The position numbers were made by a program, and so were the translations under genes. From positions 4,630-68,629 of the forward strand of contig NZ_CAXBJW010000012.1 of NCBI RefSeq assembly GCF_963976325.1: a stretch of 64,000 nucleotides of DNA. Reading direction: 5' to 3'. Source of the stretch: an uncultured Pseudosulfitobacter sp. (GTDB lineage Bacteria; Pseudomonadota; Alphaproteobacteria; Rhodobacterales; Rhodobacteraceae). The notes beneath the pieces were generated by a model. It was not told where the DNA came from and did no database searches. It saw only the letters and a program-made list of their open reading frames with translations. Shown here one piece after another: positions 24,058 to 58,506 of this stretch (positions are counted from its first letter, which is position 1; every line of letters begins with the position of its first letter).

Positions 24058-24087
24058 GGGCTGCGCCAGAACAGGCGCGGCCCTTTT
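24058..24087 (+). terminator. rho-independent terminator of purU
   Basis: GGGCTGCGCC-agaaca-GGCGCGGCCC followed by TTTT. Confidence 0.6.
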
Positions 24088-24188
24088 GCGTGGGTGACGG
24101 CCAAAATCGACTTTTCCCCTATGAGACAGGCGAATTTTGCAACAAACTTTGTGCAATTACCGCGCAATTTTTTTGGAAAGGGCAATTC

Positions 24189-25613: not shown

Positions 25614-25635
25614 CCATCATTTGCAAAACACCAAA

Positions 25636-25670
25636 GACGGGCCGTTTTACAGAAAACCGCCCGTCTGTTT
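25636..25670. terminator. bidirectional terminator hairpin between the RTX gene and scpB-like gene
   Basis: GACGGGCCGTTTT-acag-AAAACCGCCCGTC, a 13-bp stem with one mismatch. It is flanked by A/T runs on both sides and sits in a convergent gene gap. Confidence 0.65.
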
Positions 25671-25697
25671 CCCTGTACAGTCTCTCTTCTGATGGCC

Positions 25698-27172: not shown

Positions 27173-27292
27173 AAAGCAAGCCTAGTTTGCGGCGGCGCTT
27201 TTATCCAGATAATTACGCCTAAACCGCCTCAAAGTGTCGGGCCTTGTTATGTCCGATAATTCCAGGGTCAGGTGCCGCAAAACGCCACCTGC

Positions 27293-28108: not shown

Positions 28109-28141
28109 AAGAATAAATGAATCAGGTATACATGGTATAGG

Positions 28142-28213
28142 GTGACACCTCTATGTCACTGTATCGCGGTCCTCATGTCACCAAATAGAGACTGAACCGC
28201 ACCGTTGTGTCAC
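28142..28213. repeat. putative origin iterons: four TGTCAC motifs in the AT-rich rep/parA intergenic region
   Basis: GTGACA (28142-28147, inverted) and TGTCAC at 28154-28159, 28176-28181 and 28208-28213. The surrounding 28045-28340 is visibly AT-rich compared with the rest of the window. Confidence 0.45.
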
Positions 28214-28347
28214 TAAATATATGTTCTTTTTCGTGTGATCCAAAGAACCCGGCGGATTAACAGGAGCGGAATTGGAAAAGTTTGGTTTTGCCAATTCAGC
28301 CATATCCCGTTATTGAAGAAAAATATCCAAATAACAAGAGCAGTATC

Positions 28348-29652: not shown

Positions 29653-29653
29653 G

Positions 29654-30721
29654 ATGGCCAAGAGCAACAAATTCGGGTTCGCCCCTTTGGAAACCGAACC
29701 ACCGCAGCGGCGGGAACGGTCTGTTGGCCCCATGGGGGCCGCGGTGCGCGAGGCGGCAGAAAGCCTGACGGATGCCACCGAGGCCAAGGTTGAAAAGCGC
29801 CGGCAGAACGCCGTGGATGCCGAAGCGTTTCGCGCCGCCCAGGACGAGGGGCGGGTTCTGATGTCGCTGGAGCTGTCGCAGATTGCGACGGATGATCTGC
29901 CGCGCGACCGGATGGACCTTGAGGCGGTCGCGGCCTCGGACGAGATGGAAGAGCTGAAGGCATCCATTCGGGAACGCGGTCAGAAAGAGCCGATCGAGAT
30001 TTATCCCGGACCTGATGGCAGCTATCAGCTTAAGAAAGGCTGGCGCCGGTTCACCGCGCTGTCGCAGCTTTTGGCCGAAACCGGCGATGCGCGGTTCGGT
30101 ACCATCATCGCGCGGATCGAGCGGGGCGATGACGGGCGGCTGGCGCGGTACATCGACATGGTCGAGGAAAACGTGGTGCGCGAGGATCTGACCTTTGCCG
30201 AGATGGCGCAGGTTGTCATCACCGCCGCGCAGGACGACGCGGTGGGCGAACCGGACCCCGATGCGCTGGTGGCGCGGCTGTACGGCTCGCTGCACAAGAT
30301 GAAAAAATCCTACATCCGCAGCTTTGTCTTCCTGCTGTCGCAGCTGGGCGATGTGCTGCCGTTCCCCAAGGCGGTGTCGCGCAACCTGGGTGTGGATGTG
30401 TCGCGGGCGTTCAAGACCCAAGGTGCGGCTGAAGCCTTGCGCGAAAAGCTGGCCACGTGCCGGACCGCCGAAGAGCAGAACAAGGCGCTGGCGGCCTTTG
30501 TCGACGCGGCGAAATCAACCCCGCAGACGCCGAAGAAAAAGCTGGAGCCACGGGAAAAGTTCGAGTTTCACGTGGGCAGCCTGAAGGTGACAGCGCGGCG
30601 GGGCGAGTGCCGGATCGTCAGCAAGGACGACTTCGCAGCGATCCCCAAGTCCCAGCTTGAGCGTGCGATCAAGGCATTCGAGGAAGAGCTGCGCGGCGGG
30701 CCGTCGGTCAAACCGCTGTGA
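29654..30721 (+). CDS. parB: plasmid partitioning protein ParB/RepB-type
   Basis: 355 aa. ParB N-terminal domain (LKASIRERGQKEPIEIYPGPDGSYQLKKGWRRFTAL). Starts 2 nt after the parA stop. Confidence 0.85.
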   Translation: MAKSNKFGFAPLETEPPQRRERSVGPMGAAVREAAESLTDATEAKVEKRRQNAVDAEAFRAAQDEGRVLMSLELSQIATDDLPRDRMDLEAVAASDEMEELKASIRERGQKEPIEIYPGPDGSYQLKKGWRRFTALSQLLAETGDARFGTIIARIERGDDGRLARYIDMVEENVVREDLTFAEMAQVVITAAQDDAVGEPDPDALVARLYGSLHKMKKSYIRSFVFLLSQLGDVLPFPKAVSRNLGVDVSRAFKTQGAAEALREKLATCRTAEEQNKALAAFVDAAKSTPQTPKKKLEPREKFEFHVGSLKVTARRGECRIVSKDDFAAIPKSQLERAIKAFEEELRGGPSVKPL

Positions 30722-30726
30722 CAGGC

Positions 30727-30818
30727 GGTAACCCATGGGTTACCCCGGCGGCCAGGTGCTGAGGGTAACCCACGGGTTACCTTGATGGCGGGGCAGGGGT
30801 GGTAACCCATGGGTTACC
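30727..30818. repeat. parS-like centromere: three copies of the 18-bp palindrome GGTAACCCATGGGTTACC
   Basis: Copies at 30727-30744 (perfect), 30764-30781 (GGTAACCCACGGGTTACC, one mismatch) and 30801-30818 (perfect). They begin immediately downstream of the parB stop. Confidence 0.75.
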
Positions 30819-30937
30819 CTCGCAATTATAAAACAAAAACAATTACTTAGTCTAAGGCCCTGCCAGAAATACAGGGCTGGATGCAAGGTGGCACAGCCGC
30901 ACGCAGGTGCTTTGCCGCATAATCCTTGCGGTGTGCA

Positions 30938-30953
30938 AACTAATATATTAGTT
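30938..30953. promoter_or_regulatory. perfect 16-bp AT-rich palindrome AACTAATATATTAGTT upstream of the RraA-like gene
   Basis: Read directly; the reverse complement is identical. It lies 44 nt upstream of ATG 30997. Confidence 0.35.
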
Positions 30954-30996
30954 AGAAAGCCAACCCACAGCCTGCATCTGTACCAAGGATTTCCCC

Positions 30997-31722
30997 ATGA
31001 GCGATTACATCCTGTCCGACGCCACCAAGGCGCAACTCAAGCGCACCGGCACCGCGTCGATTGCGACGCAGTTGTACAAGCGCGGTCTGCGCAACCAGTT
31101 CATCCAAGGCGTCGTGCCGGTGTCGGCCAAGGCCGAGCGGATGGTGGGGCAGGCGTTTACCCTGCGCTACATTCCCGCGCGCGAGGATCGCAACCAACTG
31201 GACGTGTTCCGCAACGCCGACCATCCGCAGCGGGTGGCGGTGGAAACCTGTCCCGAGGGGCATGTGCTGGTGATGGACGCGCGACAGGATTCCACTGCGG
31301 CAACCGCCGGGTCGATCCTGATCACACGGATGGCGGTGCGCGGCTGTGCCGGTGTGGTCACCGACGGCGGTCTGCGCGATGCGGCGGGGATTGGCGCGCT
31401 GGACATGCCTGCGTTTCACGCGCGGGCTTCGGCCCCGACCAACCTGACCAAACACGAGGCGCTGGACATCAACGTGCCCATCGGCTGCGGCGGGGTTGCG
31501 GTGTTTCCCGGTGACGTGATCGTGGGGGACGGCGACGGGGTCATGGTGATCCCCGCGCATCTGGCCGACGAAATTGCCGAGGTCTGTGCAGGCATGGAAG
31601 CGTTCGAGGATTTCGTGCTGGAAGAAGTTTTGGCAGGCGCGCCGATCATCGGGCTGTATCCCTGCACCCTGGAAGAAAACCAGAAGAAGTTTGACGCCTG
31701 GCGCGCCAAAACGGGCCGGTAA
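30997..31722 (+). CDS. RraA-family protein (HMG/CHA aldolase / oxaloacetate decarboxylase-like)
   Basis: 241 aa. VLVMDARQDSTAATAGSILITRMAVRGCAGVVTDGGLRD...GDVIVGDGDGVMVIP is typical of the RraA/aldolase fold. Confidence 0.7.
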   Translation: MSDYILSDATKAQLKRTGTASIATQLYKRGLRNQFIQGVVPVSAKAERMVGQAFTLRYIPAREDRNQLDVFRNADHPQRVAVETCPEGHVLVMDARQDSTAATAGSILITRMAVRGCAGVVTDGGLRDAAGIGALDMPAFHARASAPTNLTKHEALDINVPIGCGGVAVFPGDVIVGDGDGVMVIPAHLADEIAEVCAGMEAFEDFVLEEVLAGAPIIGLYPCTLEENQKKFDAWRAKTGR

Positions 31723-31957
31723 GGCGCGGCGCTGACGGGCGCACACCGTTTGAATTTTTGCACGCCTCGGGCGGGCCTGCATCTGGACGCTGCCGGTTTC
31801 GATCTGGCGGCGCGCAGGGCTTTGCCAAAAATGCATTGGTTTTTGGTATGTAACATTACCCAAAGTTATATCTTGGCGGCCAATCGGTATTTTCAATGAA
31901 AATGGCGACTGGCTAGGCTGCGAGGAACGGAAACCTTAAAGGGGGGGCCTTTCTCGG

Positions 31958-33130
31958 ATGCCGACACTTCCACAGATCGCTGCAATGCACGACGAGATGA
32001 CCGAATGGCGGCGCGATTTTCATGCGCATCCCGAGTTGAACTATCAGGAACAACGGACATCCGACCTGGTGGCGGAGCGGCTGGAAAGCTGGGGGATCGA
32101 GGTGCATCGCGGTCTGGGCCAGACCGGCGTGATCGGGGTGCTGCGCGGCGGTGACGGGGACGGGTCGATCGGGTTGCGGGCCGATATGGACGCGCTGCCG
32201 ATGGAGGAACAGACCAACCTGCCGTACCGGTCGACCAACAGCGGCGTGATGCACGCCTGTGGTCATGACGGGCACACCACGATGTTGCTGGGGGCCGCCA
32301 AGTATCTGGCCGAGACGCGCAATTTTTCGGGCACGGTGCATTTCATTTTCCAGCCCGCCGAAGAAGCCGGGGCAGGGGCCAAGCGCATGATTGCCGAGGG
32401 GCTGTTTGACCAGTTCCCGTGCGACAGCGTCTGGGCCTTGCACAACGCGCCCAACCGGCCTGTCGGCACCGCATCGGTGCGGGCCGGGGCGGTGATGGCG
32501 GCGGTCGACACGATGAAGATCGTGATCCACGGCAAGGGCAGCCACGCGGCACGCCCGCACAACGGTAACGATCCCATCGCGGTGGGCCTGCAATTGCACA
32601 CGGCGTTTCAGCATCTGTGCACCAAGAACATCGACCCCATCGAGGTGGCCGTGGTGAACGTGACCCGCTTTATCGCGGGCACAGCCGTCAACGTGGTCCC
32701 GCCAAGCGCCGAGCTGCACGCGACGATCCGCACATTCGATCCCGGCGTGCGCGAAACCGTGCGGCGGCGGGTGCAAGAGATTTGCAAGGGCATCGAGGTG
32801 GCCTACGGCGTCACGCTGGATCTGGAATATCGCATGGGCTGTCCGCCCACGATCAACACCCCCGCCGAGGCGACATCCGCAGACCGGGCGATTTCGTCTA
32901 TACTGGGGTCCGACGCTATTGTGCGCGATCAAAAGCCGGTGGCGGGCGGAGAGGATTTTGCCGAGATGCTGGCGGTTCTGCCCGGTGCCTATATCCATGT
33001 CGGTTCAGCCAAGGGGGCGGACGATCCCCAGCTGCATCATCCAGCATATGACTTCAACGACGAGATCCTGCCCATTGGCGCGTCATATTTTGCCGCCCTG
33101 GTCGAGGATCAATTGTCAGCGAAACGCTGA
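31958..33130 (+). CDS. M20-family amidohydrolase (hippurate hydrolase / N-acyl-amino acid amidohydrolase-like)
   Basis: 390 aa. Contains FHAHPELNYQE, LRADMDALPMEE and HACGHDGHTTMLLGAAK. Confidence 0.85.
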   Translation: MPTLPQIAAMHDEMTEWRRDFHAHPELNYQEQRTSDLVAERLESWGIEVHRGLGQTGVIGVLRGGDGDGSIGLRADMDALPMEEQTNLPYRSTNSGVMHACGHDGHTTMLLGAAKYLAETRNFSGTVHFIFQPAEEAGAGAKRMIAEGLFDQFPCDSVWALHNAPNRPVGTASVRAGAVMAAVDTMKIVIHGKGSHAARPHNGNDPIAVGLQLHTAFQHLCTKNIDPIEVAVVNVTRFIAGTAVNVVPPSAELHATIRTFDPGVRETVRRRVQEICKGIEVAYGVTLDLEYRMGCPPTINTPAEATSADRAISSILGSDAIVRDQKPVAGGEDFAEMLAVLPGAYIHVGSAKGADDPQLHHPAYDFNDEILPIGASYFAALVEDQLSAKR

Positions 33131-33152
33131 CATCTTTCAGGGAGAGAGAAAC

Positions 33153-34748
33153 ATGAAACATTCGAAACTTATGTCCGCGCTGGCCATGTCCACGGCGGTT
33201 GTGCTTGCGACGGGGCAGGGGGCCATGGCGCAGGAAAACGTGCTGAAGTGGGCCTCGCAGGCGGATATTGCCAACCTGGACCCGCATGGCACAACCGGCG
33301 CGCTGCCGCTGACCATTCTGGGCAACGTCTATGAGCCGCTGGTGATGCGCGCGTCGGATATGTCGCTGGCGCCGGGGTTGGCCACAAGCTGGGAGGTGAT
33401 CAACCCGACCACCTGGCGGTTCCATCTGCGGGAAGGGGTCAAGTTTCAGAACGGCAACGATTTCAACGCCGACGACGTGATCTTTTCCATGGGGCGGGTG
33501 GGCAACGAATATTCGTTCCTGCGCGACCGTGTGACCATGGTCACCGAAATGACCAAGGTGGACGATTACACCATCGACTTTCACACCGCCGAGCCGAACC
33601 CGATCCTGCCGAACATGTGGACCAGCATCTATATGATGGACAAGGAATGGTCCGAGGAAAACAGCGCGACCGTGCCGTCGAACACGGTGGAAAACATCGA
33701 AAGCTATGCGGGTTTGCATTCGAACGGCACCGGCCCGTTCATGGTGACCGAACGCCAGCCCGAGACCAGGACCGTGTTCGAGCCGTTCGACGGCTGGTGG
33801 GGCGAGCGGACGGACAATCTGGACCGTGTGATTTATACGCCGATCACCCAGGACGGCACCCGCGTGGCGGCGCTGTTGTCGGGCGAGATCGACATGATGT
33901 TCCCCGTACCGCTGCAAGACATCGACCGGGTGAATGCCAACGAGGGCACGCAGGTGCTGATCCAGCCGGAACTGCGCACCATGATGCTGGGCATGGACCA
34001 GAACCGCGATGTGGCGCTGTTGACGGACACGCCGACCAATCCGTTCAAGGACCGGCGCGTGCGGCTGGCGCTGTATCAGGCGATTGATATTGACGGCATC
34101 CAGTCCAAGCTGATGAACGGATTGTCCGAGCCTGCGGCGACGCTGATTTCGCCGCTGCTGTTCGCCCCCGCGGGCGAGATGGAGCGGTATCCCTTTGACC
34201 CCGAAGCGTCGCGCAAGCTGCTGGCCGAAGCGGGCTATCCCGACGGGTTCAGGACTGCGCTGGTGTGCCCCAACAACCGTTATGTGAACGACGAAAAGAT
34301 CTGTCAGGCCGTGGCGTCGATGCTGGCGCGTGTGGGCATTCAGGTGGACCTGCGCACCATGAACGTCAGCCAGTACTGGAAGGTCGTGGGCCGTCCCGTG
34401 CAAGAGTTCGCCATTTACATGATGGGTTGGACGCCCGGCGGTTTGGACAGCTATTCGGTGCTGTTCAACCTGATGGGAAGCTGGGACGAGGCGTCGGGCC
34501 GTGGCCGGATCAACAACGGCGACTTTTCCAACCCGCGTATCGACGAGATCGTCGCATTGGTGGAAAGCGAAACCGACACGGCCAAGCGTGATGCCCTGAT
34601 CGCCGAAGCTTACCAGATCGTGCACGACGAGGTTTATTACCTGCCGCTGCACCAACAGACCGTGGTCTGGGGTGTGCGGGACGGTGTCGAGGTCAAACAG
34701 CGGGCCGATGACGGTTTCAACTACGCCGATGCGAAGATGACCCGCTAA
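33153..34748 (+). CDS. ABC transporter substrate-binding protein, family 5
   Basis: Frame of ORF 32919..34748. Start placed at MKHSKLMSALAMSTAVVLATGQGAMAQ (signal peptide). GGAGAGAG RBS. Confidence 0.85.
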   Translation: MKHSKLMSALAMSTAVVLATGQGAMAQENVLKWASQADIANLDPHGTTGALPLTILGNVYEPLVMRASDMSLAPGLATSWEVINPTTWRFHLREGVKFQNGNDFNADDVIFSMGRVGNEYSFLRDRVTMVTEMTKVDDYTIDFHTAEPNPILPNMWTSIYMMDKEWSEENSATVPSNTVENIESYAGLHSNGTGPFMVTERQPETRTVFEPFDGWWGERTDNLDRVIYTPITQDGTRVAALLSGEIDMMFPVPLQDIDRVNANEGTQVLIQPELRTMMLGMDQNRDVALLTDTPTNPFKDRRVRLALYQAIDIDGIQSKLMNGLSEPAATLISPLLFAPAGEMERYPFDPEASRKLLAEAGYPDGFRTALVCPNNRYVNDEKICQAVASMLARVGIQVDLRTMNVSQYWKVVGRPVQEFAIYMMGWTPGGLDSYSVLFNLMGSWDEASGRGRINNGDFSNPRIDEIVALVESETDTAKRDALIAEAYQIVHDEVYYLPLHQQTVVWGVRDGVEVKQRADDGFNYADAKMTR

Positions 34749-50682: not shown

Positions 50683-50749
50683 GGACGGGCACCCGTGCGT
50701 CGGCGGGAACCGGCACGTCGGTGCGTGACAATCAGCATCCAGATTTGAT

Positions 50750-51952
50750 CTAGCCGACAGATCCAGTGCGACGCTTGACCGGTTGCCCCGGCAACTGAAC
50801 GTATTGCGACCAGTGGGGCATTGTCTTGACGCCCCCGCCGACGTGAATTGATCCGGGCAGGTCGTAGCCTGTGGGGAACTTCCTGGCCTTGGGGTATCTG
50901 AAGTGGGTGTCGTGGATCAACACATCCTCCCGGATCAGGGGCCAGACGAAATCTGCCAGAAACGCCTGATCACCGAACTTGTTGTCAAAATACCGGGTGT
51001 CATCCCCCAGCAATCCCGCGATATTCGGCAATACACCGGCGGTGCCGCCCCACATGCCTGCCAGAATAAGCTCGTGGTGATAGATGTGATCGCGCATGAT
51101 GTGAAACCGTTTTCCTGATTCAAGCCACGCATTCACCGCCAGCAACTCTTTGGCATTCAATCTTGAATCCGCGTCACGGCAGATAAAGACGTTTACGTCT
51201 GGATCATCCGAGACCAGAAAGCGCCACATGGGCCGATAGCGTTGATGTTCGGGCCGGTCCATCAATACAACTTGCGCGCCGTAGGCCCGTAAGGCGTGAA
51301 TCGCGTCGGCGGGCACGCTGTTGTCGCAATAGAAACGTGGTGTCCAACACACATAAATGTGCTGCGCGATCTGTGCGTTGACGATGGCGCCTGTAATGTA
51401 CTCCGGTCGATCACCCCACAGTGAAAAGGCAATGATATTGCGCGTGCGTTGCGACGGATCAAAGGTGCCGCCGCCGTCGCGCAACCGTTGCTTGCGATGT
51501 ACGGACGCCTTGAACCCCGCCAGCGCATTCCTGTCTTTCAGGCGGATGTTGTGATGGCCTTCCTGCTTTGCTTCTTGCACCTGTCCGGCGCGCCACAGAA
51601 CGCCGATCAGGGCGTTTCGCACTTCGGCGTCATCCCGAATGGTCAGCGCCGTTCTGAGCGGTGCGATTGAATCTTCAAGGCGACCGGTGTTTTTCAGGAA
51701 GGTGCCGTAGCTGGTCCATCCCTCAAAGTCTTCGGCGTTGACCTCGAGATAGGCCCGAAAGGCAGCTTCTGCCTGATCGAACCGTTCCGCATCCCGCAGG
51801 CATAAGGCAACGAACAGACCTGCCCTTGATCGGGGCAGCATTTTGCTGGCGTCGTCATAGGCCGCGGCGGCGTCCAGAAAAGCCTTTTGCTGGCGGAGTT
51901 TCCGACCTTTGGCCATCTTCAACGCATGGGGTGTGGCGGCTGATTTTCGCAT
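50750..51952 (-). CDS. TPR-repeat protein with C-terminal glycosyltransferase-like domain (hypothetical)
   Basis: 400 aa. The N-terminal ~160 aa are helical and TPR-like (AEAAFRAYLEVNAEDFEGWTSYGTFLKNTGRLEDSIAPLRTAL). The C-terminal part carries a DxD-like FICRDADSR and MRDHIYHHELILAGMWGG. GC is visibly lower than in neighbouring genes. Confidence 0.5.
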   Translation of the reverse strand: MRKSAATPHALKMAKGRKLRQQKAFLDAAAAYDDASKMLPRSRAGLFVALCLRDAERFDQAEAAFRAYLEVNAEDFEGWTSYGTFLKNTGRLEDSIAPLRTALTIRDDAEVRNALIGVLWRAGQVQEAKQEGHHNIRLKDRNALAGFKASVHRKQRLRDGGGTFDPSQRTRNIIAFSLWGDRPEYITGAIVNAQIAQHIYVCWTPRFYCDNSVPADAIHALRAYGAQVVLMDRPEHQRYRPMWRFLVSDDPDVNVFICRDADSRLNAKELLAVNAWLESGKRFHIMRDHIYHHELILAGMWGGTAGVLPNIAGLLGDDTRYFDNKFGDQAFLADFVWPLIREDVLIHDTHFRYPKARKFPTGYDLPGSIHVGGGVKTMPHWSQYVQLPGQPVKRRTGSVG

Positions 51953-52059
51953 CGAGGCCTCGATCAGGTGAGAGCCGCAACAGAAAAGTATACCTACTTA
52001 TTAATGTCAATAACATACTTTAGTATATATATGGACGGGCGGGAGATATGATTTGCCCC

Positions 52060-52548
52060 TTACCCCTCCACAATCTCGTAAGCCGTCTCGAACCAATGTT
52101 CCTCAAGGTTCACGCCCTCGCCGATGCGGTCGACCACGGCGAACAGGCCGGGCGCGTGGATCGGGGTCAGGACGCCGTGCCATGTGCCGCGGTGCAGGTT
52201 GATCGCTTGTCCCGCCGTCGTCACGAAGGCGCGGGGGGTGCCGGGTTTGCCGTTCTCGTCGGGGGCGACCACCACGACGAAAGGGTGCAGGCTCATCGGG
52301 ATAAAGGCCTGAGAGCCCTCGGGATGACGTTCGACCATGTCCAGCGTGATCGGAAACTGGCGCGGTTCGGCGTTGAACAGGCTGATGCCCGCGCGCCCGT
52401 CCGAAAAGTCCAGCGTGGCGCGGTCGTGGTGGCGGCCGCACAGGCCCTGGTTGATGATCTTGTCCGGCGTGCCCGAAACATCCAGAACATCGCCAAAGGG
52501 GGCAAACGCCTGCGCCGTCAGGGTGCTGAGTGTCAGCGTCTGGGTCAT
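52060..52548 (-). CDS. allA: ureidoglycolate lyase
   Basis: 162 aa. FAPFGDVL...INQGLCGRHHD...ERHPEGSQAFIPM...HRGTWH is typical of AllA. Confidence 0.85.
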   Translation of the reverse strand: MTQTLTLSTLTAQAFAPFGDVLDVSGTPDKIINQGLCGRHHDRATLDFSDGRAGISLFNAEPRQFPITLDMVERHPEGSQAFIPMSLHPFVVVVAPDENGKPGTPRAFVTTAGQAINLHRGTWHGVLTPIHAPGLFAVVDRIGEGVNLEEHWFETAYEIVEG

Positions 52549-53957
52549 TGGCCGAACTTCTCGATCAGGCGCAGTTCCGCGATGCGCTCAACCTGTGCGC
52601 AGGCCTCGGCAAATTCGGTGTCGCGGTCGTTGTCGATGCGGCGGGCGAAGGCGTCCATGATCGACGCCTTGGTGTTGTCGCGCACGGCGATGATGAAGGG
52701 AAAGCCGAACTTGGCGGTATAGGCGTCGTTCAGTTCGGTGAATTTCGCGCGTTCGTCGTCGGTCAGCGCGTCCAGACCGACCGAGGCTTGCTCGGCCGTC
52801 GACTCGGCGGTCAGACGTTTCGCCGTCGCCAGCTTGCCGGCCAAATCGGGGTGGGCGGTCAGCACGGCCAGACGTTGTTCGTCCGATGCGGTGCGGAACA
52901 CCCGCGCCAGCGCCTGATGGATGCCCTGCGCGGTGTCGTGGGTGCGGCCCAGTTCCAGCGCATGGGCGCCTTCGGCGATCCAGGGGCTGTGTTCAAAGAT
53001 GCCGCCGAACGCCTGCACGAATGTGTCGCGGTCCATGTCCGACGGGCGCTGCGCCGTCGGGGCAGGATGGGTGCGCGCCCAGTGCTCGGCAATCTCAAGC
53101 CGGCTGGCGAACCACACGCCATCGTGCGACTTCATATAGTCCAGCGCCCGTTTCAGCCCGGCGGCCCGCCCCGGACGGCCCGCGATGCGGCAATGCAGAC
53201 CGATCGACAGCATCTTCGGCGCGCCCTCTTGTCCTTCGGCATAGAGCATGTCGAAACTGTCCATCAGATAGCTTTCGAACTGCGCCCCGGTGGTAAAGCC
53301 CGCCTGAATGCCAAAGCGCATGTCGTTGCAGTCCATCGTATAGGGCACCATCAACTGGTCGCGCCCGTCAAACCGTTCCCAATAGGGCAGCTCGTCGGAA
53401 TAGGTGTCGGCCAGATAGGCAAACTGCCCCGTCTCGGCGGCCAGACGGTTGGTGTCCATCGAACACCGCCCCGTGTACCAGCCGCGCGGCGGGGTGCCGG
53501 TGACTTCGGTGTGCAGGCGGATGGCCTCGGCGATTGCGGCGCGTTCCTCGTCCTCGGGCATGTCCTTGTGTTCGACCCATTTCAAGCCGTGGCTGGCGAT
53601 TTCCCAGCCTGCGGTCTGCATCGCCTTGACCTGCTCGGGCGCACGGGCCAGCGCGGTGGCCACGCCGTAAACGGTGACGGGCAGGTCGGCCATCATGCGG
53701 TGCAGACGCCAGAAGCCTGCGCGCGATCCGTATTCATAGATGGTTTCCATGTTCCAGTGCCGCTGCCCGACCCAGGGCTGCGCGCCGGTGATCTCGGACA
53801 GGAACGCCTCGGACGCGGCGTCGCCGTGCAGGATGTTGTTCTCGCCGCCCTCTTCGTAGTTCAGCACGATCTGAACGGCGATCTTCGCCCCATCGGGCCA
53901 GTTGGCTGCGGGCGGGGTGGCACCATGGCCGGTCATGTCTCGGGGGTAGCGGTTCAT
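52545..53957 (-). CDS. puuE: bifunctional allantoinase PuuE (polysaccharide-deacetylase type) / OHCU decarboxylase UraD fusion
   Basis: 470 aa. The N-terminal ~300 aa are PuuE-like (YPRDMTGHG...WPDGAKIAVQIVLNYEEGGE). The C-terminal ~165 aa are OHCU-decarboxylase-like (FGGIFEHSPWIAE...LTAHPDLAGK...FGFPFIIAVR). Confidence 0.85.
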   Translation of the reverse strand: MNRYPRDMTGHGATPPAANWPDGAKIAVQIVLNYEEGGENNILHGDAASEAFLSEITGAQPWVGQRHWNMETIYEYGSRAGFWRLHRMMADLPVTVYGVATALARAPEQVKAMQTAGWEIASHGLKWVEHKDMPEDEERAAIAEAIRLHTEVTGTPPRGWYTGRCSMDTNRLAAETGQFAYLADTYSDELPYWERFDGRDQLMVPYTMDCNDMRFGIQAGFTTGAQFESYLMDSFDMLYAEGQEGAPKMLSIGLHCRIAGRPGRAAGLKRALDYMKSHDGVWFASRLEIAEHWARTHPAPTAQRPSDMDRDTFVQAFGGIFEHSPWIAEGAHALELGRTHDTAQGIHQALARVFRTASDEQRLAVLTAHPDLAGKLATAKRLTAESTAEQASVGLDALTDDERAKFTELNDAYTAKFGFPFIIAVRDNTKASIMDAFARRIDNDRDTEFAEACAQVERIAELRLIEKFGQ

Positions 53958-54110
53958 GGTGGTCTCCTTTGATCAGGTCTGCACCCCCTGTAATCCAAAA
54001 CAATCGCGGGGATTATCAAAAAATATCAGAAGCAGCCTTTTGTGCGCGATGCTTTGCCGGGGGTGCTGCGCCCTGTCTATATGCCAGCGGAACGCACAGG
54101 AGGAAATGCG

Positions 54111-54464
54111 ATGGCCGGATATTTGACAACCCATGTTCTGGACACGGCGCGGGGGTGTCCCGCGGCGGGGATGCGGATTGAGCTGTTTCGGGTCGAGGAT
54201 GGGGGGCGGACGCATCTGAAAACGGTTGAGACCAATGCCGACGGGCGCACGGATGCGCAGATCCTGCCCGAGGCGGAGTTTCAGGTCGGCACCTACGAGC
54301 TGGTGTTTCACGCGGGCGATTATCTGGATGGGTGCGGTGTGCCCCCCGAAGCGCCGCGCTTTCTGGACGTGATCCCGCTGCGGTTCGGGATGTCGGAGGC
54401 GATGCATTACCATGTGCCATTGTTGCTGTCGCCGTTCGGGTATTCGACGTATCGGGGGAGTTAG
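54111..54464 (+). CDS. uraH: 5-hydroxyisourate hydrolase
   Basis: Frame of ORF 54042..54464. Start placed at MAGYLTTHVLDTARG with an AGGAGG RBS. The C-terminal YSTYRGS is the transthyretin-like HIUase signature. Confidence 0.9.
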   Translation: MAGYLTTHVLDTARGCPAAGMRIELFRVEDGGRTHLKTVETNADGRTDAQILPEAEFQVGTYELVFHAGDYLDGCGVPPEAPRFLDVIPLRFGMSEAMHYHVPLLLSPFGYSTYRGS

Positions 54465-54716
54465 GGTCTGCGCTGAAAATGCAGCCCGAAGCCGCGCATC
54501 GACGGGCCGAGGTGCGGCGATCCAACCTGAGTGTCTGCCACTTAATGGCAGCCAAGCACATTCAACCCATCTGTTCCGCGCAACAGAAACCAAATCGCCG
54601 TGCCGTGGGGCGGCCCGGCGATGCGCGGCGGCCTGCGGCCTTGAATCCGCGCGGGGGGGAAGTCGGAAAGGCCTCAAACCCGACCTTCGCCGCAACCTCA
54701 CCTAACACCAGCCCCA

Positions 54717-54946
54717 CACACCAAAGCCCGGAATCAAGGTGCTTTAGCACCGCCGGGCAGCGCCCGACCGCCCGTCACGCCGGAGGCGTGCCTGAAATAG
54801 TCGGCGCACCTTTGGTGCGACGGGCGGGCGCTTTCTCACCGTTTTGCACTTTGTCACCCGCACGCCAAAGCGGATAGATAAAGTGGCATTAACGAAGGTA
54901 TCTGCGCCCACCCGCGGTCGGGCGCTGCCCTGTGTGGCGAAGTCAC
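54717..54946. repeat. structured intergenic repeat, copy A (RIME/MITE-like)
   Basis: Aligns by eye with 57223-57404. 17-bp long-range inverted repeat GGGCAGCGCCCGACCGC (54755-54771) / GCGGTCGGGCGCTGCCC (54914-54930). Lies in the convergent gap between uraH and a LysR gene. Confidence 0.7.
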
Positions 54947-54953
54947 GATCCCC

Positions 54954-55871
54954 CTAAAGCATCCCGCTGTCGCGCACGTCCTTGCTGATGCGGTCGATCA
55001 CGAAATCCATGAACAGGCGGGTTTTCGGGTCCTGCCGTTTGCGGTGGGTGAACAGGCACGCCATCTGGATCGGCTCGGGCGGGGTGGCTGTGGCCACGGG
55101 CACCAGCCGTCCGGCGCGCAGGTGGTCGGCGACCTCGAAGATCGGTTTCAGCACGATCCCTTGCCCCGCCAGCGCCCAGTCGATCAGCACGTCGCCGTCG
55201 TCGGATTCGTAGCGCCCCGTCACGGCAAAGCGTTTCGGCCCCTCGGGTGTCATCAGCCGCCACTGAAATTCCGGCGCGCCGGGAAAGCGCAGGTTCAGGC
55301 ATTCGTGGCGGTCGGTCACCAGCGCCTCGCCCGACACCGGATTGCCGCGCGCGGCGATATAGTCCGGGGCGGCGCACAGCACCCGTTCCACATCGGCGAT
55401 CTTGCGGATGCGCAGGGTGCTGTCCTCGGGCTGACCCAGGAAAAACGCCAGATCCAGCCCCTCGGTGGTCAGATCCACCTTGCGGTCGGTCAGGCGCAGG
55501 CGCACGGACACCTCGGGGTAGGCTTTCAGAAACGCCGGCACCTGCGGCGCGATCAGGCGGCGGCCGACACCCAGCGGGGCGGCCACGAACAGCGCGCCCT
55601 TGGGGTTGTCGGTGATCGACACCACCTGTGCCTCGGCGTTGTCGACCGATTCCAGTATCTCGCAGGCCCCGCTGTAAAACGCCTTGCCCTGCTCGGTCGG
55701 GGTCAGGCTGCGGGTGGTGCGCTGGAACAGGCGCACGCTCAGATGATCCTCAAGCTGGGAAATCCGCGACGAGGTCACTGCCGGAGAAATGCGCAAATCG
55801 CGCCCCGCTGCGGACATACTGCCCAATTCGTAGACACGCACAAAGGTGCGGATATTATCAAGATAGGACAT
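54954..55871 (-). CDS. LysR family transcriptional regulator
   Basis: 305 aa. HTH is FVRVYELGSMSAAGRDLRISPAVTSSRISQLEDHLSVRLFQRTTR. Divergent from puuD. Confidence 0.9.
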   Translation of the reverse strand: MSYLDNIRTFVRVYELGSMSAAGRDLRISPAVTSSRISQLEDHLSVRLFQRTTRSLTPTEQGKAFYSGACEILESVDNAEAQVVSITDNPKGALFVAAPLGVGRRLIAPQVPAFLKAYPEVSVRLRLTDRKVDLTTEGLDLAFFLGQPEDSTLRIRKIADVERVLCAAPDYIAARGNPVSGEALVTDRHECLNLRFPGAPEFQWRLMTPEGPKRFAVTGRYESDDGDVLIDWALAGQGIVLKPIFEVADHLRAGRLVPVATATPPEPIQMACLFTHRKRQDPKTRLFMDFVIDRISKDVRDSGML

Positions 55872-55971
55872 TGTTCTGATTTTTTTGATGCTGCTTGGTC
55901 TTTTGCGCTAATAGCAGAAGAATGTCCAAACGCCTAGAGTGGCGGGACATAGGAATCGAGGGAGAAGTGCC

Positions 55972-57204
55972 ATGTATGATCTGGCTGTCTTGTGGGACTG
56001 GGCCGCGTTCGCTGTCCGCTGGTTGCATGTTGTCACCGCGATGGCATGGATCGGCGCGTCGTTCTTTTTCATCGCTTTGGATCTGGGGCTGAAAAAAGCG
56101 CCCAACATGCCCTTTGGCGTCAACGGTGAAGAATGGCAGGTGCACGGCGGCGGGTTCTATCACATCCAGAAGTATCTGGTGGCGCCGGAAAACATGCCGG
56201 AACACCTGATCTGGCACAAATGGCAAAGCTACATCACATGGGTGTCGGGGGCGGCGCTGTTGATGATCGTCTATTGGGTCGGCGGCGAGCTGTTCCTGCT
56301 GGACCCGACCAAGGCCGATCTGGCGCTGTGGCAAGGCATTCTGATTTCCGGTGGATCGCTGACGATTGGCTGGCTCCTGTACGATCTGATGTGCAAATCC
56401 AGGCTGGGCGAAACGCCGACCGTGCTGATGCTGTTGCTGTTCGTGATCCTGGTGGTGATGTCCTGGGGCTATAACCAGATTTTCACCGGCCGCGCGGCGC
56501 TGCTGCATCTGGGGGCGTTTACGGCGACGATCATGACGGCCAACGTGTTTTTCATCATCATGCCGAACCAGCGCATCGTGGTCAAAGACCTGCAAGAAGG
56601 GCGCACGCCCGACCCCAAATACGGCAAGATCGCCAAGCTGCGGTCGACCCACAACAATTACCTGACGCTGCCTGTCGTCTTCCTGATGCTGTCCACGCAT
56701 TACCCGCTGTCGTTTGCGACTGAATACAGTTGGATCATCGCCAGCCTTGTGTTCCTGACCGGCGTGACCATCCGGCACTATTTCAACACCATGCACGCCA
56801 CCGGCAAGGGGCCGCACTGGACGTGGGGCGTGACGGTGATCCTGTTCATCCTGATCGCGTGGCTGTCCACGGCGTCGATGAACGACACCTATGAGGAGGC
56901 CGAGGCGCGGCCCCTGACCGCGACCGAACAGCGGTTTGCATCGGCCGAGGGGTTTGACGCGGCCTATGATGCGGTGATTTCCAACTGTTCCATGTGCCAC
57001 GCCCGCGAGCCGGTTTGGCAGGGGCTGCAATGGCCGCCCAAGGGCGTGCTGCTGGAAACCAAAAGCGACGTGGTACGCCATGCGCCGCAGATCTACATGC
57101 AGGCGGGGCTAAGCCACGCGATGCCGCCGCCCAGTGCGGTGCAGATGGACGATGAGGCGCGGCGTCAGATTGTGGCGTGGGTGCGGTCGGCGTCGGGGGA
57201 TTAG
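55972..57204 (+). CDS. puuD: membrane urate hydroxylase PuuD (cytochrome c-containing)
   Basis: Frame of ORF 55939..57204. Start placed at MYDLAVLWDW with a GAGGGAGA RBS. Polytopic membrane N-terminus (RWLHVVTAMAWIGASFFFIALD). C-terminal CxxCH heme motif (NCSMCHA). Confidence 0.8.
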   Translation: MYDLAVLWDWAAFAVRWLHVVTAMAWIGASFFFIALDLGLKKAPNMPFGVNGEEWQVHGGGFYHIQKYLVAPENMPEHLIWHKWQSYITWVSGAALLMIVYWVGGELFLLDPTKADLALWQGILISGGSLTIGWLLYDLMCKSRLGETPTVLMLLLFVILVVMSWGYNQIFTGRAALLHLGAFTATIMTANVFFIIMPNQRIVVKDLQEGRTPDPKYGKIAKLRSTHNNYLTLPVVFLMLSTHYPLSFATEYSWIIASLVFLTGVTIRHYFNTMHATGKGPHWTWGVTVILFILIAWLSTASMNDTYEEAEARPLTATEQRFASAEGFDAAYDAVISNCSMCHAREPVWQGLQWPPKGVLLETKSDVVRHAPQIYMQAGLSHAMPPPSAVQMDDEARRQIVAWVRSASGD

Positions 57205-57222
57205 GGCGGGTTAAGCCGCCAC

Positions 57223-57404
57223 TCACCAAAGCCCGGAACAAGGCACGCAGTGCCGCCGGGCAGCGCCCGACCGCCCCATGGGCGGGCGCTTCCTCACCGT
57301 ATTGCGATTCATCTGCCCCACGCCAAAGACTAGAAATAAAGTGGTCGCCACTGATGTTCCGATGCCCACCCGCGGTCGGGCGCTGCCCTGTGTGGCTGGG
57401 TCAC
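57223..57404. repeat. structured intergenic repeat, copy B (RIME/MITE-like)
   Basis: Same blocks as copy A. 17-bp inverted repeat at 57258-57274 / 57372-57388. Lies in the convergent gap between puuD and the second LysR gene. Confidence 0.7.
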
Positions 57405-57424
57405 TCTGGGCACATTCTCGACTG

Positions 57425-58327
57425 CTAACCCGCAGGCAACAGCCCCTCGCACTGCTTCACCACGAAATCGACGAACAGCCGCACCTTCGGGTCCTGCAAC
57501 TTCTTGTGCGGATACAAACACCCAAAGATCATGGGCACCGGCGGCGTATCAGGCAGCACCTCGACCAGATCGCCGCGCGCCAGATGCGCCGCCACATCAA
57601 AGCGTGGCTTGTTCACGATCCCGCGCCCGTCCAGCGCCCAATCGGTCAGCACATCGCCGTCATCGGCATCGTATTTTCCCGCCACCTCCAGCTTGCGCGG
57701 CCCTTGGGCGGTGTCCAGCGTCCAGAAATACTCGGGCGAGCGGGGGTAGCGCAGCAGCAAACAGTTGTGCTCCATCAGGTCGTCAGGCCCCGCAGGCGTG
57801 CCCCGTTGCGCCAGATAGCGCGGGGCGGCGCACAGCACGCGGGCGCAATCCGCGATCTTGCGCAGCTTCATGTTTGAATCCCCCGGCGTGCCGATGAAAA
57901 ACGCGATGTCCAGACCGTCGGCCAATATGTCCACCTTGCGATCCGACAGACGCATCCGCACCCGTGTTTCGGGAAAGGCATCGACGAATCGCGGCACCAG
58001 CGGGGCGATCAAACGGCGACCGGCCCCCAGCGGCGCGGTGATCTGGATGGTGCCGCGTGGCTGGGCGGAATAATTCGCCACCTTGGCCTCTGCCGTCTCT
58101 AACGCGCCCAGAACCGACTTTGCCTCGTCATAGAACACATGCCCGACCTCGGTGGGGGACAGCGACCGCGTGGTGCGGTTGAACAGGCGCACGCCCAGGT
58201 GTTTTTCCAGTTCCTTGATACGCTTGCTGGCCACAGCGGGGGTCAGCCGCAGGTCGCGGCCACCCGAGGTGATGCTGCCCAGTTCGACCACGCGCACGAA
58301 CACTTTCAGGCTTTCGATATAGGACAT
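57425..58327 (-). CDS. LysR family transcriptional regulator (paralog of 54954-55871)
   Basis: Frame of ORF 57425..58513. Start placed at MSYIESLKVFVRVVELGSITSGGRDLRLTPAVASKRIKELEKHLGVRLFNRTTR. Divergent from xdhA. Confidence 0.9.
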   Translation of the reverse strand: MSYIESLKVFVRVVELGSITSGGRDLRLTPAVASKRIKELEKHLGVRLFNRTTRSLSPTEVGHVFYDEAKSVLGALETAEAKVANYSAQPRGTIQITAPLGAGRRLIAPLVPRFVDAFPETRVRMRLSDRKVDILADGLDIAFFIGTPGDSNMKLRKIADCARVLCAAPRYLAQRGTPAGPDDLMEHNCLLLRYPRSPEYFWTLDTAQGPRKLEVAGKYDADDGDVLTDWALDGRGIVNKPRFDVAAHLARGDLVEVLPDTPPVPMIFGCLYPHKKLQDPKVRLFVDFVVKQCEGLLPAG

Positions 58328-58506
58328 GGGTGCGGTTTCCCTGGCTGTTGGCGGTGCCCTTATAGTCCCGTTTCGCAGATCCATTATCAACGTTTTGTTG
58401 AAAGTATTTTCCAAAAGGCGCTGTTTTTCGGTGCAGTCGGGTGACGTATCGTTCCTCAAATCCGGCCCGGCCAACCGCCGACGGATCACCCCACAGGAGG
58501 CCCCCC

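Follow-up and report, generated by a model that had tools for sequence, protein, structure and literature searches.

A dispersed family of hairpin-forming intergenic repeats at gene ends in Rhodobacterales

The two related intergenic stretches studied here, copy A and copy B, are dispersed, non-coding, hairpin-forming repeats of a family that we call F1, and they are probably co-transcribed in the 3' regions of neighbouring genes, where they could plausibly act as a terminator or as a hairpin at the RNA end. The kind of element, REP/BIME-like, is known; the F1 variant is new and is an apparently undescribed family found in many marine Rhodobacterales. Both copies lie in the window, that is, the whole 64,000-nucleotide stretch of DNA that was analysed, which is syntenic to a plasmid of Pseudosulfitobacter pseudonitzschiae. 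The original prediction had proposed a structured intergenic repeat family, neither coding nor a one-off duplication, and this is supported by many plasmid copies and by stems that covary both within and between families. Of the three identities that it had offered, a REP or mosaic element fits best, and a classical MITE and a stand-alone sRNA gene are disfavoured.

Architecture and gene context of the elements

The features of the locus are as follows.

54108-54464, + strand: hiuH/uraH, hydroxyisourate hydrolase (translation MAGYLTTHVLD...), convergent with LysR-family regulator 1
54492-54652, - strand: F2 element (F1-profile nhmmer E = 1.9e-5; F2 profile 176 bits), with P1 formed by GCGCGG/CCGCGC, left arm 54611-54628, right arm 54492-54509 and CCATTAAGTGG at 54538-54548
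54660-54700, + strand: short hairpin module GAAGTCGG...GGCCTCAAACCCGACCTTCGC, here between the F2 and F1 elements
54722-54946, + strand: F1 element copy A, long form, including the family-specific tail TGTGTGGCGAAGTCAC (alignment with copy B and with 9 and 73 family members)
54726-54758, + strand: 5' domain of copy A, with P1 formed by GCCCGG (54726-54731) and CCGGGC (54753-54758)
54755-54771, + strand: left arm of copy A, GGGCAGCGCCCGACCGC (exact match), overlapping the 3' half of P1 by GGGC
54774-54821, + strand: insert module of copy A, two 6-bp hairpins, GTCACGCC-GGA-GGCGTGCC and GGCGCACC-TTT-GGTGCGAC, with an A-rich spacer between them
54822-54837, + strand: segment b of copy A (GGGCGGGCGC), then TTTCTC
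54878-54883, + strand: conserved central motif ATAAAG of copy A
54904-54930, + strand: segment c (GCGCCCACCC, 54904-54913) and right arm (GCGGTCGGGCGCTGCCC, 54914-54930) of copy A
54954-55871, - strand: LysR-family regulator 1 (Pfam HTH_1 and LysR_substrate), stop codon 23 nt from the right arm of copy A
55972-57204, + strand: urate hydroxylase PuuD (Pfam Urate_ox_N, 2.2e-130; the annotation of plasmid P3 agrees)
57227-57404, + strand: F1 element copy B, short form, tail to 57404, with P1 57231-57236/57256-57261, hairpin h1 57242-57254, left arm 57258-57274, segment b 57280-57289, ATAAAG 57336-57341, segment c 57362-57371 and right arm 57372-57388
57425-58345, - strand: LysR-family regulator 2, 55% identical to regulator 1, stop codon 36 nt from the right arm of copy B

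The hiuH gene is identified by an ortholog annotated as uraH on plasmid P3 and by a second ortholog, at locus L010, that matches the Transthyretin/HIUase family. Element boundaries were set from the flank conservation profile, family-wide conservation running from about 4 nt before GCCCGG (54722 in copy A, 57227 in copy B) to about 7 nt past CTGCCC. Copy B occupies the entire spacer between the puuD stop codon (57204), which is 26 nt from the P1 end of the element, and the stop codon of LysR regulator 2 (57425).

The conserved blocks that the two copies had been said to share are in place in both, with a mean column identity of 77% in the alignment and identical blocks of 20-33 nt. The perfect 17-bp inverted repeat was confirmed as well: the window contains exactly four instances of the 17-mer GGGCAGCGCCCGACCGC, each copy having one on either strand (54755-54771 and 54914-54930 in copy A, 57258-57274 and 57372-57388 in copy B). 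The separation of the arms, given earlier as about 100-140 nt, is corrected to 142 nt in copy A versus 97 nt in copy B. P1 of copy A encloses a conserved internal loop, AATCAA, and the small hairpin h1, which had been correctly located in both copies (GGTGC-TTTA-GCACC at 54738-54751 and GGCAC-GCA-GTGCC at 57242-57254).

The extra nucleotides of copy A do extend a stem, as proposed, CCGCCCGTC (54768-54776) pairing with GACGGGCGG (54819-54827) around them; their net number is 45 rather than about 42. The 48-nt double-hairpin module at 54774-54821 stands in place of a CAT loop and sits within the apical loop of a local hairpin, P2. Of about 110 copies, 15 carry it, with arms 141-144 nt apart; two arrangements of it are known, and it also occurs in one F2-like copy. 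Segment b has alternative partners, namely the left arm, giving P2 followed by a short T run, or segment c. The fold of copy A is better than shuffles (z = -7.2 on the + strand, -7.6 on the - strand), and that of copy B is better on both strands (z = -3.1 and -2.6).

A third element, missing from the original prediction, adjoins copy A at 54492-54652 on the - strand, the end of its right arm lying 27 nt from the hiuH stop codon. This F2 element has the same architecture as F1, with different arms that compensate each other; its single-sequence fold reaches only z = -1.6, no better than shuffles. A third arm variant, F3, is present elsewhere. In the closest relative, the 73-nt gap that separates F2 from F1 is not conserved. 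The module at 54660-54700, which lies in this gap, matches exactly at a single site in the window and is missing from the orthologous L010 spacer; in four other loci (L023, L091, L094 and L103) it sits after the F1 right arm.

As had been predicted, no ORF is plausible, since no coding signal is found and the arm spacing varies; a small ORF through the central region, where one frame is open in both copies, was ruled out by long forms without an ATG and by the same variation over 95-101 nt. ARAGORN returned 0 tRNA or tmRNA genes over 54300-57600.

Among 81 copies for which both neighbours could be called, 41 lie between convergent genes, 38 between tandem genes and 2 between divergent genes, compared with 135, 531 and 116 in the background, so that the convergent share is 51% for elements versus 17% for the background. 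Nearly all of these copies (79/81) are downstream of a gene, and a neighbouring gene is at most 50 nt away in about 24 of 54 and about 22 of 66 copies. A sigma-70 scan found no promoter in or beside the elements, and the flank profile shows no conserved flank of promoter length on either side. Because the elements lack a promoter of their own and sit just past stop codons, they would be transcribed within the 3' region of a neighbouring gene; the lack of a conserved promoter-length flank and the abutting of stop codons likewise disfavour a stand-alone sRNA gene. A riboswitch or leader for purine catabolism, suggested by the locus, was discarded given the convergent-stop position, the unrelated contexts elsewhere and the absence of an Rfam match.

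We favour a mechanism of the following kind. A neighbouring gene would read into the element, which would become part of its 3'-region RNA; on either strand, hairpins with short U-rich stretches behind them would then act as a terminator and/or as a barrier protecting the RNA 3' end, and convergent genes could be served in both directions, as by REP/BIME, ERIC and Correia elements in other bacteria. Consistent with this, the TT after P2 is invariant, 62 of 71 copies carry 3-4 T in the 8 nt past segment b on the + strand, and the conserved AAUCAA yields UUGAUU after h1 on the - strand. A consensus terminator scan called one internal minus-strand hairpin with a T run in copy B and called neither P2 nor h1. 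In Leisingera, canonical terminators stand at the same spacers. Against the terminator reading, two conserved unpaired motifs, GGAAUCAAGG and (C)AUAAAG, suggest sequence-specific recognition, which a plain terminator does not need.

Base pairing and covariation across the families

At the core of F1, a GC-rich unit that is a palindrome in its own right, GGGCAGCGCCCGACCGC..GGGYGGGCGC, is present twice in inverted orientation, and the core can be folded into a single long hairpin (about 27 bp) or into several local ones. Three loops can carry optional modules (h1, the double-hairpin insert, and a central domain, about 70 nt long, that contains the AUAAA loop), and element size ranges from a minimal 76 nt to a typical 160-205 nt. 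A search for split elements on either side of a gene was confounded, as the reverse complement of the right arm matches the left-arm pattern too.

The columns of P1 are 92.8% paired, as GCCCGG/CCGGGC in F1 and GCGCGG/CCGCGC in F2. Covariation is also clear in the h1 stem, with CG 42, UA 19 and GC 8 at one pair and GC 42, AU 18, CG 6 and UA 3 at another. In a mixed alignment of F1, F2 and F3, folding as a long hairpin gives 89.5% pairing and 17 pairs in which both sides have changed; for the local hairpins the values are 89.2% and 13. Both models beat 500 of 500 shuffles and all slid controls. The two are equally supported because the four GC-rich segments covary as a quartet, as is the case for REP doublets; at two loci (L017 and L029) GCGCCC has become GGGCCC in all four segments.

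The compensatory changes between the h1 hairpins of copies A and B, noted in the original prediction, do reflect covariation, but with a caveat: both versions are frequent in the family as alleles. In a very close relative, the ortholog of copy A has the h1 version of copy B, so that exchange between copies, besides selection on point mutations, can yield a compensatory pattern. Stems are almost always perfect Watson-Crick helices with very few G-U pairs. An assignment of strand from G-U versus A-C mismatches was rejected as the signals conflict, G-U-compatible mismatches being found for both strands.

The unpaired positions are conserved as well. Two unpaired motifs, GGAAUCAAGG and (C)AUAAAG, are shared by F1 and F2, and the ATAAA of the latter motif shows no or hardly any variation among 73 F1 copies; in single-sequence folds ATAAA falls in a hairpin loop in 29 of 54 cases, on a stem that differs between subfamilies. 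Such features could be expected if the element were a functional RNA in itself, either acting in cis as a regulatory part of 3' UTRs or being processed from them as an sRNA, with the AUAAA hairpin loop and the GGAAUCAAGG internal loop contacting a protein or RNA. Three arm families that keep one architecture through compensating changes, the persistence of both unpaired motifs and of a fixed-length central domain despite sequence divergence, the AUAAA loop on differing stems, and insertions that are confined to loops and leave the scaffold intact all speak for it. We nevertheless regard it as distinctly unlikely: no promoter-length flank is conserved on either side, no clear strand signal emerges (orientation in tandem contexts is weakly biased, 25 versus 13), the covariation between families is largely one event inherited by many copies, Rfam gives no match, and orthologous loci of related genera do without the element.

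Distribution, turnover and possible modes of spread

The copy count that the original prediction had called for takes the family well beyond two copies and shows it to be multi-copy across Rhodobacterales. With copy B as query, 425 places on 148 plasmid records were found, and F2 occurs at 238 places on 96 plasmid records. Four F1 copies are present on each of two P. pseudonitzschiae plasmids, and the right-arm pattern CCCACCCGCGGTCRGGCSCTGCCC matches at least 105 stretches in species-representative genomes from many Rhodobacterales genera, with at least 7-10 exact right arms in each of three genomes among the matches listed. Arms are identical across many genera and about invariant; the central regions of copies from one genome share about 72% identity. 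The invariance of the right arm is partly due to ascertainment by the search pattern; the left arm is nearly invariant in 73 copies, though these were found by the right arm alone.

Elements of the family mark the ends of genes, and their turnover is rapid. A single spacer has three versions in three close relatives: between puuD and LysR regulator 2 there is a short F1 element in the window, a long F1 element on plasmid P3 and an F2 element in the opposite orientation at L010. Both orientations and the F1 and F2 families are thus interchangeable at a spacer. The element is missing from the syntenic purine loci of Sulfitobacter faviae, Sulfitobacter sp. OXR-159, Alloyangia and Leisingera, which indicates that it is dispensable there; a constant need for it at these spacers was accordingly ruled out by the S. 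faviae, OXR-159 and Leisingera loci. A phage origin was likewise rejected, with 0 matches to the element in viral contigs.

We presume that the element was spread and homogenised by a mechanism that leaves no target-site duplication, candidate routes being recombination or gene conversion between copies, or a putative enzyme acting on single-stranded DNA. The latter could be the main story if F1 were a non-autonomous element of REPIN or PATE type, moved as single-stranded DNA by a putative HUH/Y1-type enzyme (compare RAYT or the TnpA of IS200/IS605) that reads the invariant arms and hairpins, with any effect on RNA being secondary. Two inverted palindromic units in which both the long and the local folding are kept, near-perfect Watson-Crick stems as expected of DNA hairpins, invariant arms around a diverged interior, which fits sequence-specific recognition, and the lack of a target-site duplication are in line with such a history. 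A few pairs of copies within one genome are 93-96% identical, suggesting recent copying, and presence/absence differences and family swaps separate very close genomes. The swaps seen, however, replace whole spacers and are not clean insertions, and no flanking tetranucleotide is as strongly conserved as expected for IS200/IS605 targets. A tblastn search with E. coli RayT, covering plasmids and 1 Mb of element-bearing loci, gave 0 Rhodobacterales records among 32 plasmid hits and 0 hits in the loci, and Group 1, the most widespread RAYT group, is reported to be rare in Alphaproteobacteria (PMC5581495). On balance we consider this history unlikely.

A classical MITE, derived from and moved by an insertion sequence with a DDE transposase, would share with F1 the size of 160-205 nt, the inverted repeat, the multiple intergenic copies, the long and short variants and, in the Sulfitobacter-type subfamily, a short CCAC...GTGG at the outer ends. 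It is very improbable, being largely refuted by the absence of target-site duplications, a feature that the original prediction had proposed to look for: across 100 distinct copies and about 6,700 offset/length combinations no direct repeat rose above noise, the best case (9 observed versus 2 expected) being one of 3-mers among all these combinations. Furthermore, the 17-bp repeat is internal rather than terminal, P1 and h1 lying outside the left arm and the ends sharing CCAC/GTGG only. Clustering of 703 neighbouring ORFs gave only housekeeping families, with no transposase or other recurrent protein near the copies, and neither the literature nor existing annotation yielded a match.

If a LysR gene had been duplicated locally together with the sequence that follows it, this would explain why each copy stands immediately downstream of one of two paralogous LysR genes of like orientation. 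The probability of such a segmental duplication is practically nil, since the LysR proteins are only 55% identical, versus fully identical element blocks of 20-33 nt, the upstream partners of copies A and B differ, and the family occurs in unrelated contexts and genera; a simple duplication is already refuted by the many unlinked copies.

Rfam 15 covariance models gave no match at the gathering threshold over the whole window and only chance-level hits (E >= 2.8), elsewhere in the region, over 53900-57500. Literature searches by sequence and by topic returned nothing relevant on such repeats in Rhodobacterales. The lack of a match in Rfam or the literature, the stronger constraint on arms than on the interior and the recurrence of the same unpaired motifs across compensated stems are the basis of a broader idea, namely that F1, F2 and F3 may be an unrecognised, order-wide class of structured nucleic acid with a dedicated putative partner. 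In one version it would be an RNA module of 3' UTRs, and a conserved protein or RNA of Rhodobacterales would recognise its invariant arms, its AUAAA hairpin loop and its GGAAUCAAGG internal loop. In the other it would be a non-autonomous element that a new enzyme copies by way of single-stranded hairpins, in bacteria among which RAYTs seem to be uncommon. We find this conceivable rather than likely, and retain as the preferred reading a REP/BIME-like repeat at transcript 3' ends.

Bacteria of the roseobacter group are major marine heterotrophs with many plasmids and chromids, and their non-coding repeats are almost unstudied. Owing to its marking of gene ends and its rapid turnover, the family could serve for strain typing, for the annotation of transcript ends and for the study of recombination between replicons. 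Should a specific factor recognise the invariant arms and the loops, the family would be a convenient starting point for the study of a system that recognises RNA or DNA hairpins, in a lineage in which no classical REP/RAYT pair was detected; if it is a merely tolerated selfish hairpin, it would be one more ordinary family of intergenic repeats in bacteria.

Comparison with known systems

Two known kinds of structure were compared with F1. Integron attC sites have R''/R' cores (RYYYAAC / GTTRRRY) that are not present in the F1 sequence, and in contrast to cassette arrays F1 is dispersed, in both orientations, among syntenic metabolic genes. Bidirectional intrinsic terminators, like F1, lie between convergent stop codons and have GC-rich hairpins flanked by T-rich sequence on one strand and A-rich sequence on the other, whereas F1 is a repeated family with invariant arms, conserved loops, modular inserts and short U stretches.

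Among dispersed repeats, RIME and other rhizobial mosaic elements are alphaproteobacterial, intergenic and composed of large palindromes in mosaic arrangement, and F1 is likened to them by description; literature searches retrieved neither RIME nor another described repeat for Rhodobacterales. Correia elements (NEMIS, Neisseria) and ERIC (Enterobacteria) are intergenic repeats of 100-160 nt that form a long hairpin when co-transcribed with their neighbours, and they have long and short forms differing by an internal segment, as F1 does. Effects of these elements on mRNA processing and stability are known. Their sequences are unrelated to F1, whose counted copy numbers are far lower. The inverted repeats of Correia elements are terminal, 26 bp long and accompanied by a TA duplication, unlike F1, in which the repeat is internal and no duplication is found.

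The closest parallel is with REP/BIME of Enterobacteria and the REPINs of Pseudomonas. Classical REPs are species-specific, number hundreds of copies and are accompanied by a RAYT gene, which typically has the repeats on its flanks. F1 differs in being larger, in its conserved unpaired motifs and accessory hairpins, in having arms that are identical across genera rather than species-specific, with at least about 10 copies counted per genome, and in lacking a GTAG-type tetranucleotide; no RAYT was found on Rhodobacterales plasmids or in 1 Mb of loci. The likenesses are these: in both, GC-rich, imperfect palindromic extragenic units are concentrated at gene 3' ends and between convergent genes, occur as inverted pairs able to form one larger hairpin, are combined in mosaics with other short modules and show no target-site duplication. 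For REP/BIME, the roles described are termination and protection of the upstream mRNA (PMC5082802).

Two copies in a purine-catabolism cluster

Both copies, A and B, are surrounded by a purine-catabolism cluster, whose features are listed here; F1 and F2 denote arm families of one intergenic hairpin-forming repeat of Rhodobacterales.

52545-53957, minus, puuE/OHCU decarboxylase
about 54108-54464, plus, hydroxyisourate hydrolase (hiuH)
54492-54652, minus, F2 element
54722-54946, plus, F1 copy A (long form)
54954-55871, minus, LysR regulator 1
55972-57204, plus, urate hydroxylase PuuD
57227-57404, plus, F1 copy B (short form)
57425-58345, minus, LysR regulator 2
plus strand, xdhA and xdhB

It follows from this gene order that copies A and B occupy spacers between convergent stop codons. 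The window contains exactly three elements, the two F1 copies and one F2, together with a short hairpin module (54660-54700) that at other loci is placed after F1 copies.

The sequences at 54717-54946 and 57223-57404 agree with the original prediction of a structured repeat, and its conserved blocks align. The perfect 17-bp inverted repeat, GGGCAGCGCCCGACCGC, has exactly four occurrences in the 64 kb, one on each strand of each copy, and none elsewhere without mismatch. Two base pairs of the small 5' hairpin differ between the copies, both with compensation, and CCGCCCGTC/GACGGGCGG enclose the extra segment of copy A, as had been described; the net length difference, put at 42 nt, is 45 nt, the arms being 142 nt apart in copy A versus 97 nt in copy B. 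Against dinucleotide shuffles, the folds of A and of B are the better ones on either strand (z = -7.2 and -7.6 for the two strands of copy A, -3.1 and -2.6 for copy B).

A recent duplication of a LysR gene with its flank was ruled out, since the two regulators are merely 55% identical as proteins and such a duplication cannot account for identical element blocks of 20-33 nt. Each of these paralogues forms a divergent pair with a catabolic gene or operon (puuD; xdhAB) and has a structured repeat directly past its stop codon, and the two-LysR arrangement is also kept on plasmid P3 of P. pseudonitzschiae and in L010, a locus named Sulfitobacter sp. 20_GPM-1509m.

The window is collinear with P3 (NZ_CP086950.1) at 92-96% identity. 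Between window 22983-33572 and P3 1-13917, collinearity is interrupted from window 24015 to 27300; the P3 segment at ~14-27 kb, which encodes a YhaN-family protein, a recombinase, an ISKra4 transposase and part of a sugar transporter, is unmatched in the window, and below about 19 kb the window matches P3 weakly. The broken collinearity and this weak match indicate that the window replicon is a rearranged relative of P3. At 50683-52063, a low-GC segment of ~1.4 kb without a P3 match, which looks like a foreign insertion or replacement, stands in place of the 260-nt IclR/ureidoglycolate-lyase spacer that in P3 holds an F1 copy. It encodes a 400-aa ORF (50750-51952, minus) of low codon-usage score, and a very AT-rich stretch near 51985-52035 lies between this ORF and the ureidoglycolate lyase gene.

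Architecture, arm families and covariation

Read on the plus strand of the window, F1 begins with GCCCGG, AAUCAA, hairpin h1, G and CCGGGC, in which the outer pair GCCCGG/CCGGGC forms stem P1. The left arm GGGCAGCGCCCGACCGC begins with the final GGGC of P1 and is followed by CC(C), by either a 3-nt loop or a 48-nt double-hairpin insert, and by segment b, GGGCGGGCGC, with TT(T/C). A central region of ~70 nt, nearly fixed in length and variable in sequence except for (C)ATAAAG, precedes segment c, GCGCCCACCC, and the right arm, GCGGTCGGGCGCTGCCC. Flank profiles place the conserved span from 4 nt before GCCCGG to about 7 nt past CTGCCC. Six minimal copies, without central region and h1, consist of a ~76-nt hairpin after a simple P1 hairpin, so that the optional parts occupy three loops of a core hairpin.

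The double-hairpin insert (window 54774-54821) occupies an equivalent loop in F1 and F2-like copies and is known in two arrangements. In the rarer one, carried by the P3 ortholog of copy B (L003:33931-34199, minus), by L024 and by an F2-like copy (L082:7763-7902, minus), the hairpins are swapped and the loops complemented, as if inverted; the 10-nt A-rich spacer (AAATAGTC) has direct orientation in both. Half-size variants occur in L042 and L099. The internal loop beside h1 (window 54730-54736 and 57235-57241) reads GGAATC, GGAGTC or GGATTC in 41 of 73 F1 copies, which corresponds to GANTC, the CcrM methylation motif of Alphaproteobacteria, with a freely varying middle base; copy A has this site and copy B does not (GGAACAAGG). 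Rolling-circle (IS91-type) elements use CTTG/GTTC tetranucleotides, and some rolling-circle replicons have CTTGATA nick sites. Read on the opposite strand, the loop motif is CCTTGATTCC or CCTTGTTCC, which we take to contain CTTG/GTTC and to resemble those nick sites.

A profile of the 73 F1 copies yielded further diverged matches, including window 54516-54649 (minus), which, aligned with similar matches, defined the distinct family F2. Its layout is identical to that of F1, and both share the unpaired motifs GGA(A/U)UCAAGG and CCAU(A/U)AAGUGG, but every paired segment differs, with GCGCGG/CCGCGC in P1, CCGCGCAUCGCCGGGCCG/CGGCCCGUCGAUGCGCGG as the arms and CGGCGAU/AUCGCCG as segments b and c. 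F3, a third arm variant (GGCGAGCGCCGGCCCG/CGGGCCGGCGCUCGCC), was found in one Roseovarius genome. In the hiuH/LysR1 spacer, F2 (minus) and copy A (plus) stand with their P1 ends face to face, and their right-arm ends are each 23-27 nt from a stop codon.

Within F1, two h1 stem positions occur as CG 42, UA 19 and GC 8, and as GC 42, AU 18, CG 6 and UA 3. Structure was tested on 54 sequences, namely 38 diverse F1 copies, the right arm in the F1 set being fixed by the search pattern, five sequences found without that pattern (four F1, one F3) and 11 F2. A long-hairpin model (h1, arm:arm, b:c) paired 89.5% of cells with 17 pairs changed on both sides, and a local-hairpin model (P1, h1, left arm:b, c:right arm) 89.2% with 13; on most measures none of 500 shuffles reached either model, and no slid control did. 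As both models are supported, the four GC-rich segments covary as a quartet; in two copies, GCGCCC has become GGGCCC in all four. This quartet covariation is the pattern that two inverted copies of a self-complementary unit give, the same geometry as that of a REP doublet (REPIN). The covariation between families is mostly one event inherited by many copies. In h1, G-U pairs are almost absent and G-U-compatible mismatches are seen for both strands, so these data do not distinguish selection on RNA from selection on DNA, nor the strand. In L010, which comes from a very close relative, the ortholog of copy A carries the h1 version of copy B in an element otherwise 92% identical, a sequence pattern that points to exchange between copies.

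Distribution, placement and turnover

Sequence searches confirmed that the repeat extends well beyond two copies. Copy B matched 425 places on 148 plasmid records, mainly of Pseudosulfitobacter, with partial matches in Leisingera, Paroceanicella, Ruegeria and Tritonibacter, and all matches listed fall outside annotated features; F2 matched 238 places on 96 plasmid records. P3 carries four F1 copies or remnants, and P6, also from P. pseudonitzschiae, has four copies in unrelated contexts (toxin-antitoxin/GntR, HipA/CoA-transferase, IclR/CHAT and CHAT/GST). The exact right-arm pattern, scanned in one genome per species, gave at least 105 stretches, with at least 7-10 in each of three genomes; the matches listed include Sulfitobacter, Roseovarius, Paracoccus, Defluviimonas, Gemmobacter, Shimia, Thalassovita, Roseinatronobacter, Oceanicella and others. 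The viral contigs searched contained no match. At some loci, three or four copies or fragments of F1 and/or F2, some directly adjacent, are grouped within a few hundred to a few thousand nucleotides (L099:4600-5310, L103:1566-2042 and L103:5432-7664), an adjacency that resembles BIME clusters.

Genes were called with a simple codon-usage caller that reproduces those of the window. Of the 81 copies for which both neighbours were called, 41 lie in convergent spacers, 25 and 13 in tandem spacers (two orientations) and 2 in divergent ones, against a background of 17% convergent, 68% tandem and 15% divergent in the same loci. Many copies are within 50 nt of a neighbouring gene, and orientation relative to the upstream gene is weakly biased.

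The suggestion of a MITE is disfavoured: no target-site duplications were found, flanking direct repeats were not above chance at any offset or length, and the inverted repeat of F1 is internal, not terminal. The 703 neighbouring ORFs contain no recurrent protein family, and the largest groups among them are ordinary genes of metabolism and housekeeping. No relative of E. coli RayT was found on any Rhodobacterales plasmid or in 1 Mb of element loci; Bertels et al. (PMC5581495) described Group 1, the most widely distributed RAYT group, as rare in Alphaproteobacteria, and REP association as limited to two RAYT groups. Copies within a genome typically share ~72% identity in the central region with unchanged arms, and a few pairs reach 93-96%, indicating that most copies are old, that copying is occasional, and that the arms are strongly constrained or homogenised.

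L010 has the same purine cluster, with third codon positions 84-92% identical. Its hiuH/LysR1 spacer holds the orthologous F2 and F1 pair at 92.5% and 91.8% identity, about the synonymous rate or slightly better. The puuD/LysR2 spacer contains F2 in opposite orientation in L010, F1 copy B in the window and a long-form F1 in P3; homology between L010 and the window ends there at both stop codons, so the entire spacer was exchanged. In P3, most of copy A is deleted. F1 and F2 were not found in syntenic loci of Sulfitobacter faviae, Sulfitobacter sp. OXR-159, Alloyangia and Leisingera, nor in puuD loci of Limimaricola and a Paracoccus, where neighbouring genes differ; the element is thus dispensable at those loci. 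The hiuH/LysR spacer is 21-24 nt in S. faviae and OXR-159, and the equivalent Leisingera spacers have canonical hairpin-plus-T-run terminators. In OXR-159 (L114 5220-6341), an IS110-family and another transposase lie past puuD, in the position that copy B and LysR2 occupy in the window, and neither F1 nor F2 was detected in that segment. IS110-type elements target repeated palindromes in other bacteria.

Possible role and relation to known systems

The elements have no promoter-length conserved flank and abut stop codons; any RNA made from them would therefore be the tail of a neighbouring gene's transcript. We infer a terminator-like role in such tails. On the plus strand, the P2 hairpin (left arm:b) would be the first stable structure, followed by an invariant UU with 3-4 U in 8 nt; h1 and UUGAUU, the complement of the conserved AAUCAA, would come after the long hairpin on the minus strand. 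Such a role would explain why h1 keeps its structure with a free sequence, why either orientation and either family occur in the same convergent spacer, and why plain terminators stand at equivalent spacers in other genera. A simple terminator scan did not call the U-rich stretches past P2 and h1, which are short. A plain terminator gives no account of the conserved AUAAA loop and the invariant arms, which may instead have a specific partner, either a protein or a nucleic acid.

Comparison with Rfam placed the element in no family, and tests for MITE, Correia, attC and tRNA-like membership rejected each. F1, F2 and F3 matched no description in the papers searched, whether queried by sequence or by topic. 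A Bradyrhizobium study reported homologues of the BjsR3 sRNA terminator stem-loop in many Rhizobiales and Rhodobacterales, among them Phaeobacter (PMC5082802). In BLAST, the P2 hairpin alone matched partially in Leisingera, Tritonibacter and Paroceanicella. Assignment to REP/RAYT would be premature: no RAYT turned up on the plasmids and in the loci searched, copy numbers stand as lower bounds (at least 7-10 right arms in each of three genomes), and the sequence is conserved across the order. The closest known systems are REP/BIME and REPIN elements, followed by Correia and ERIC elements, rhizobial mosaic elements and bidirectional terminators.
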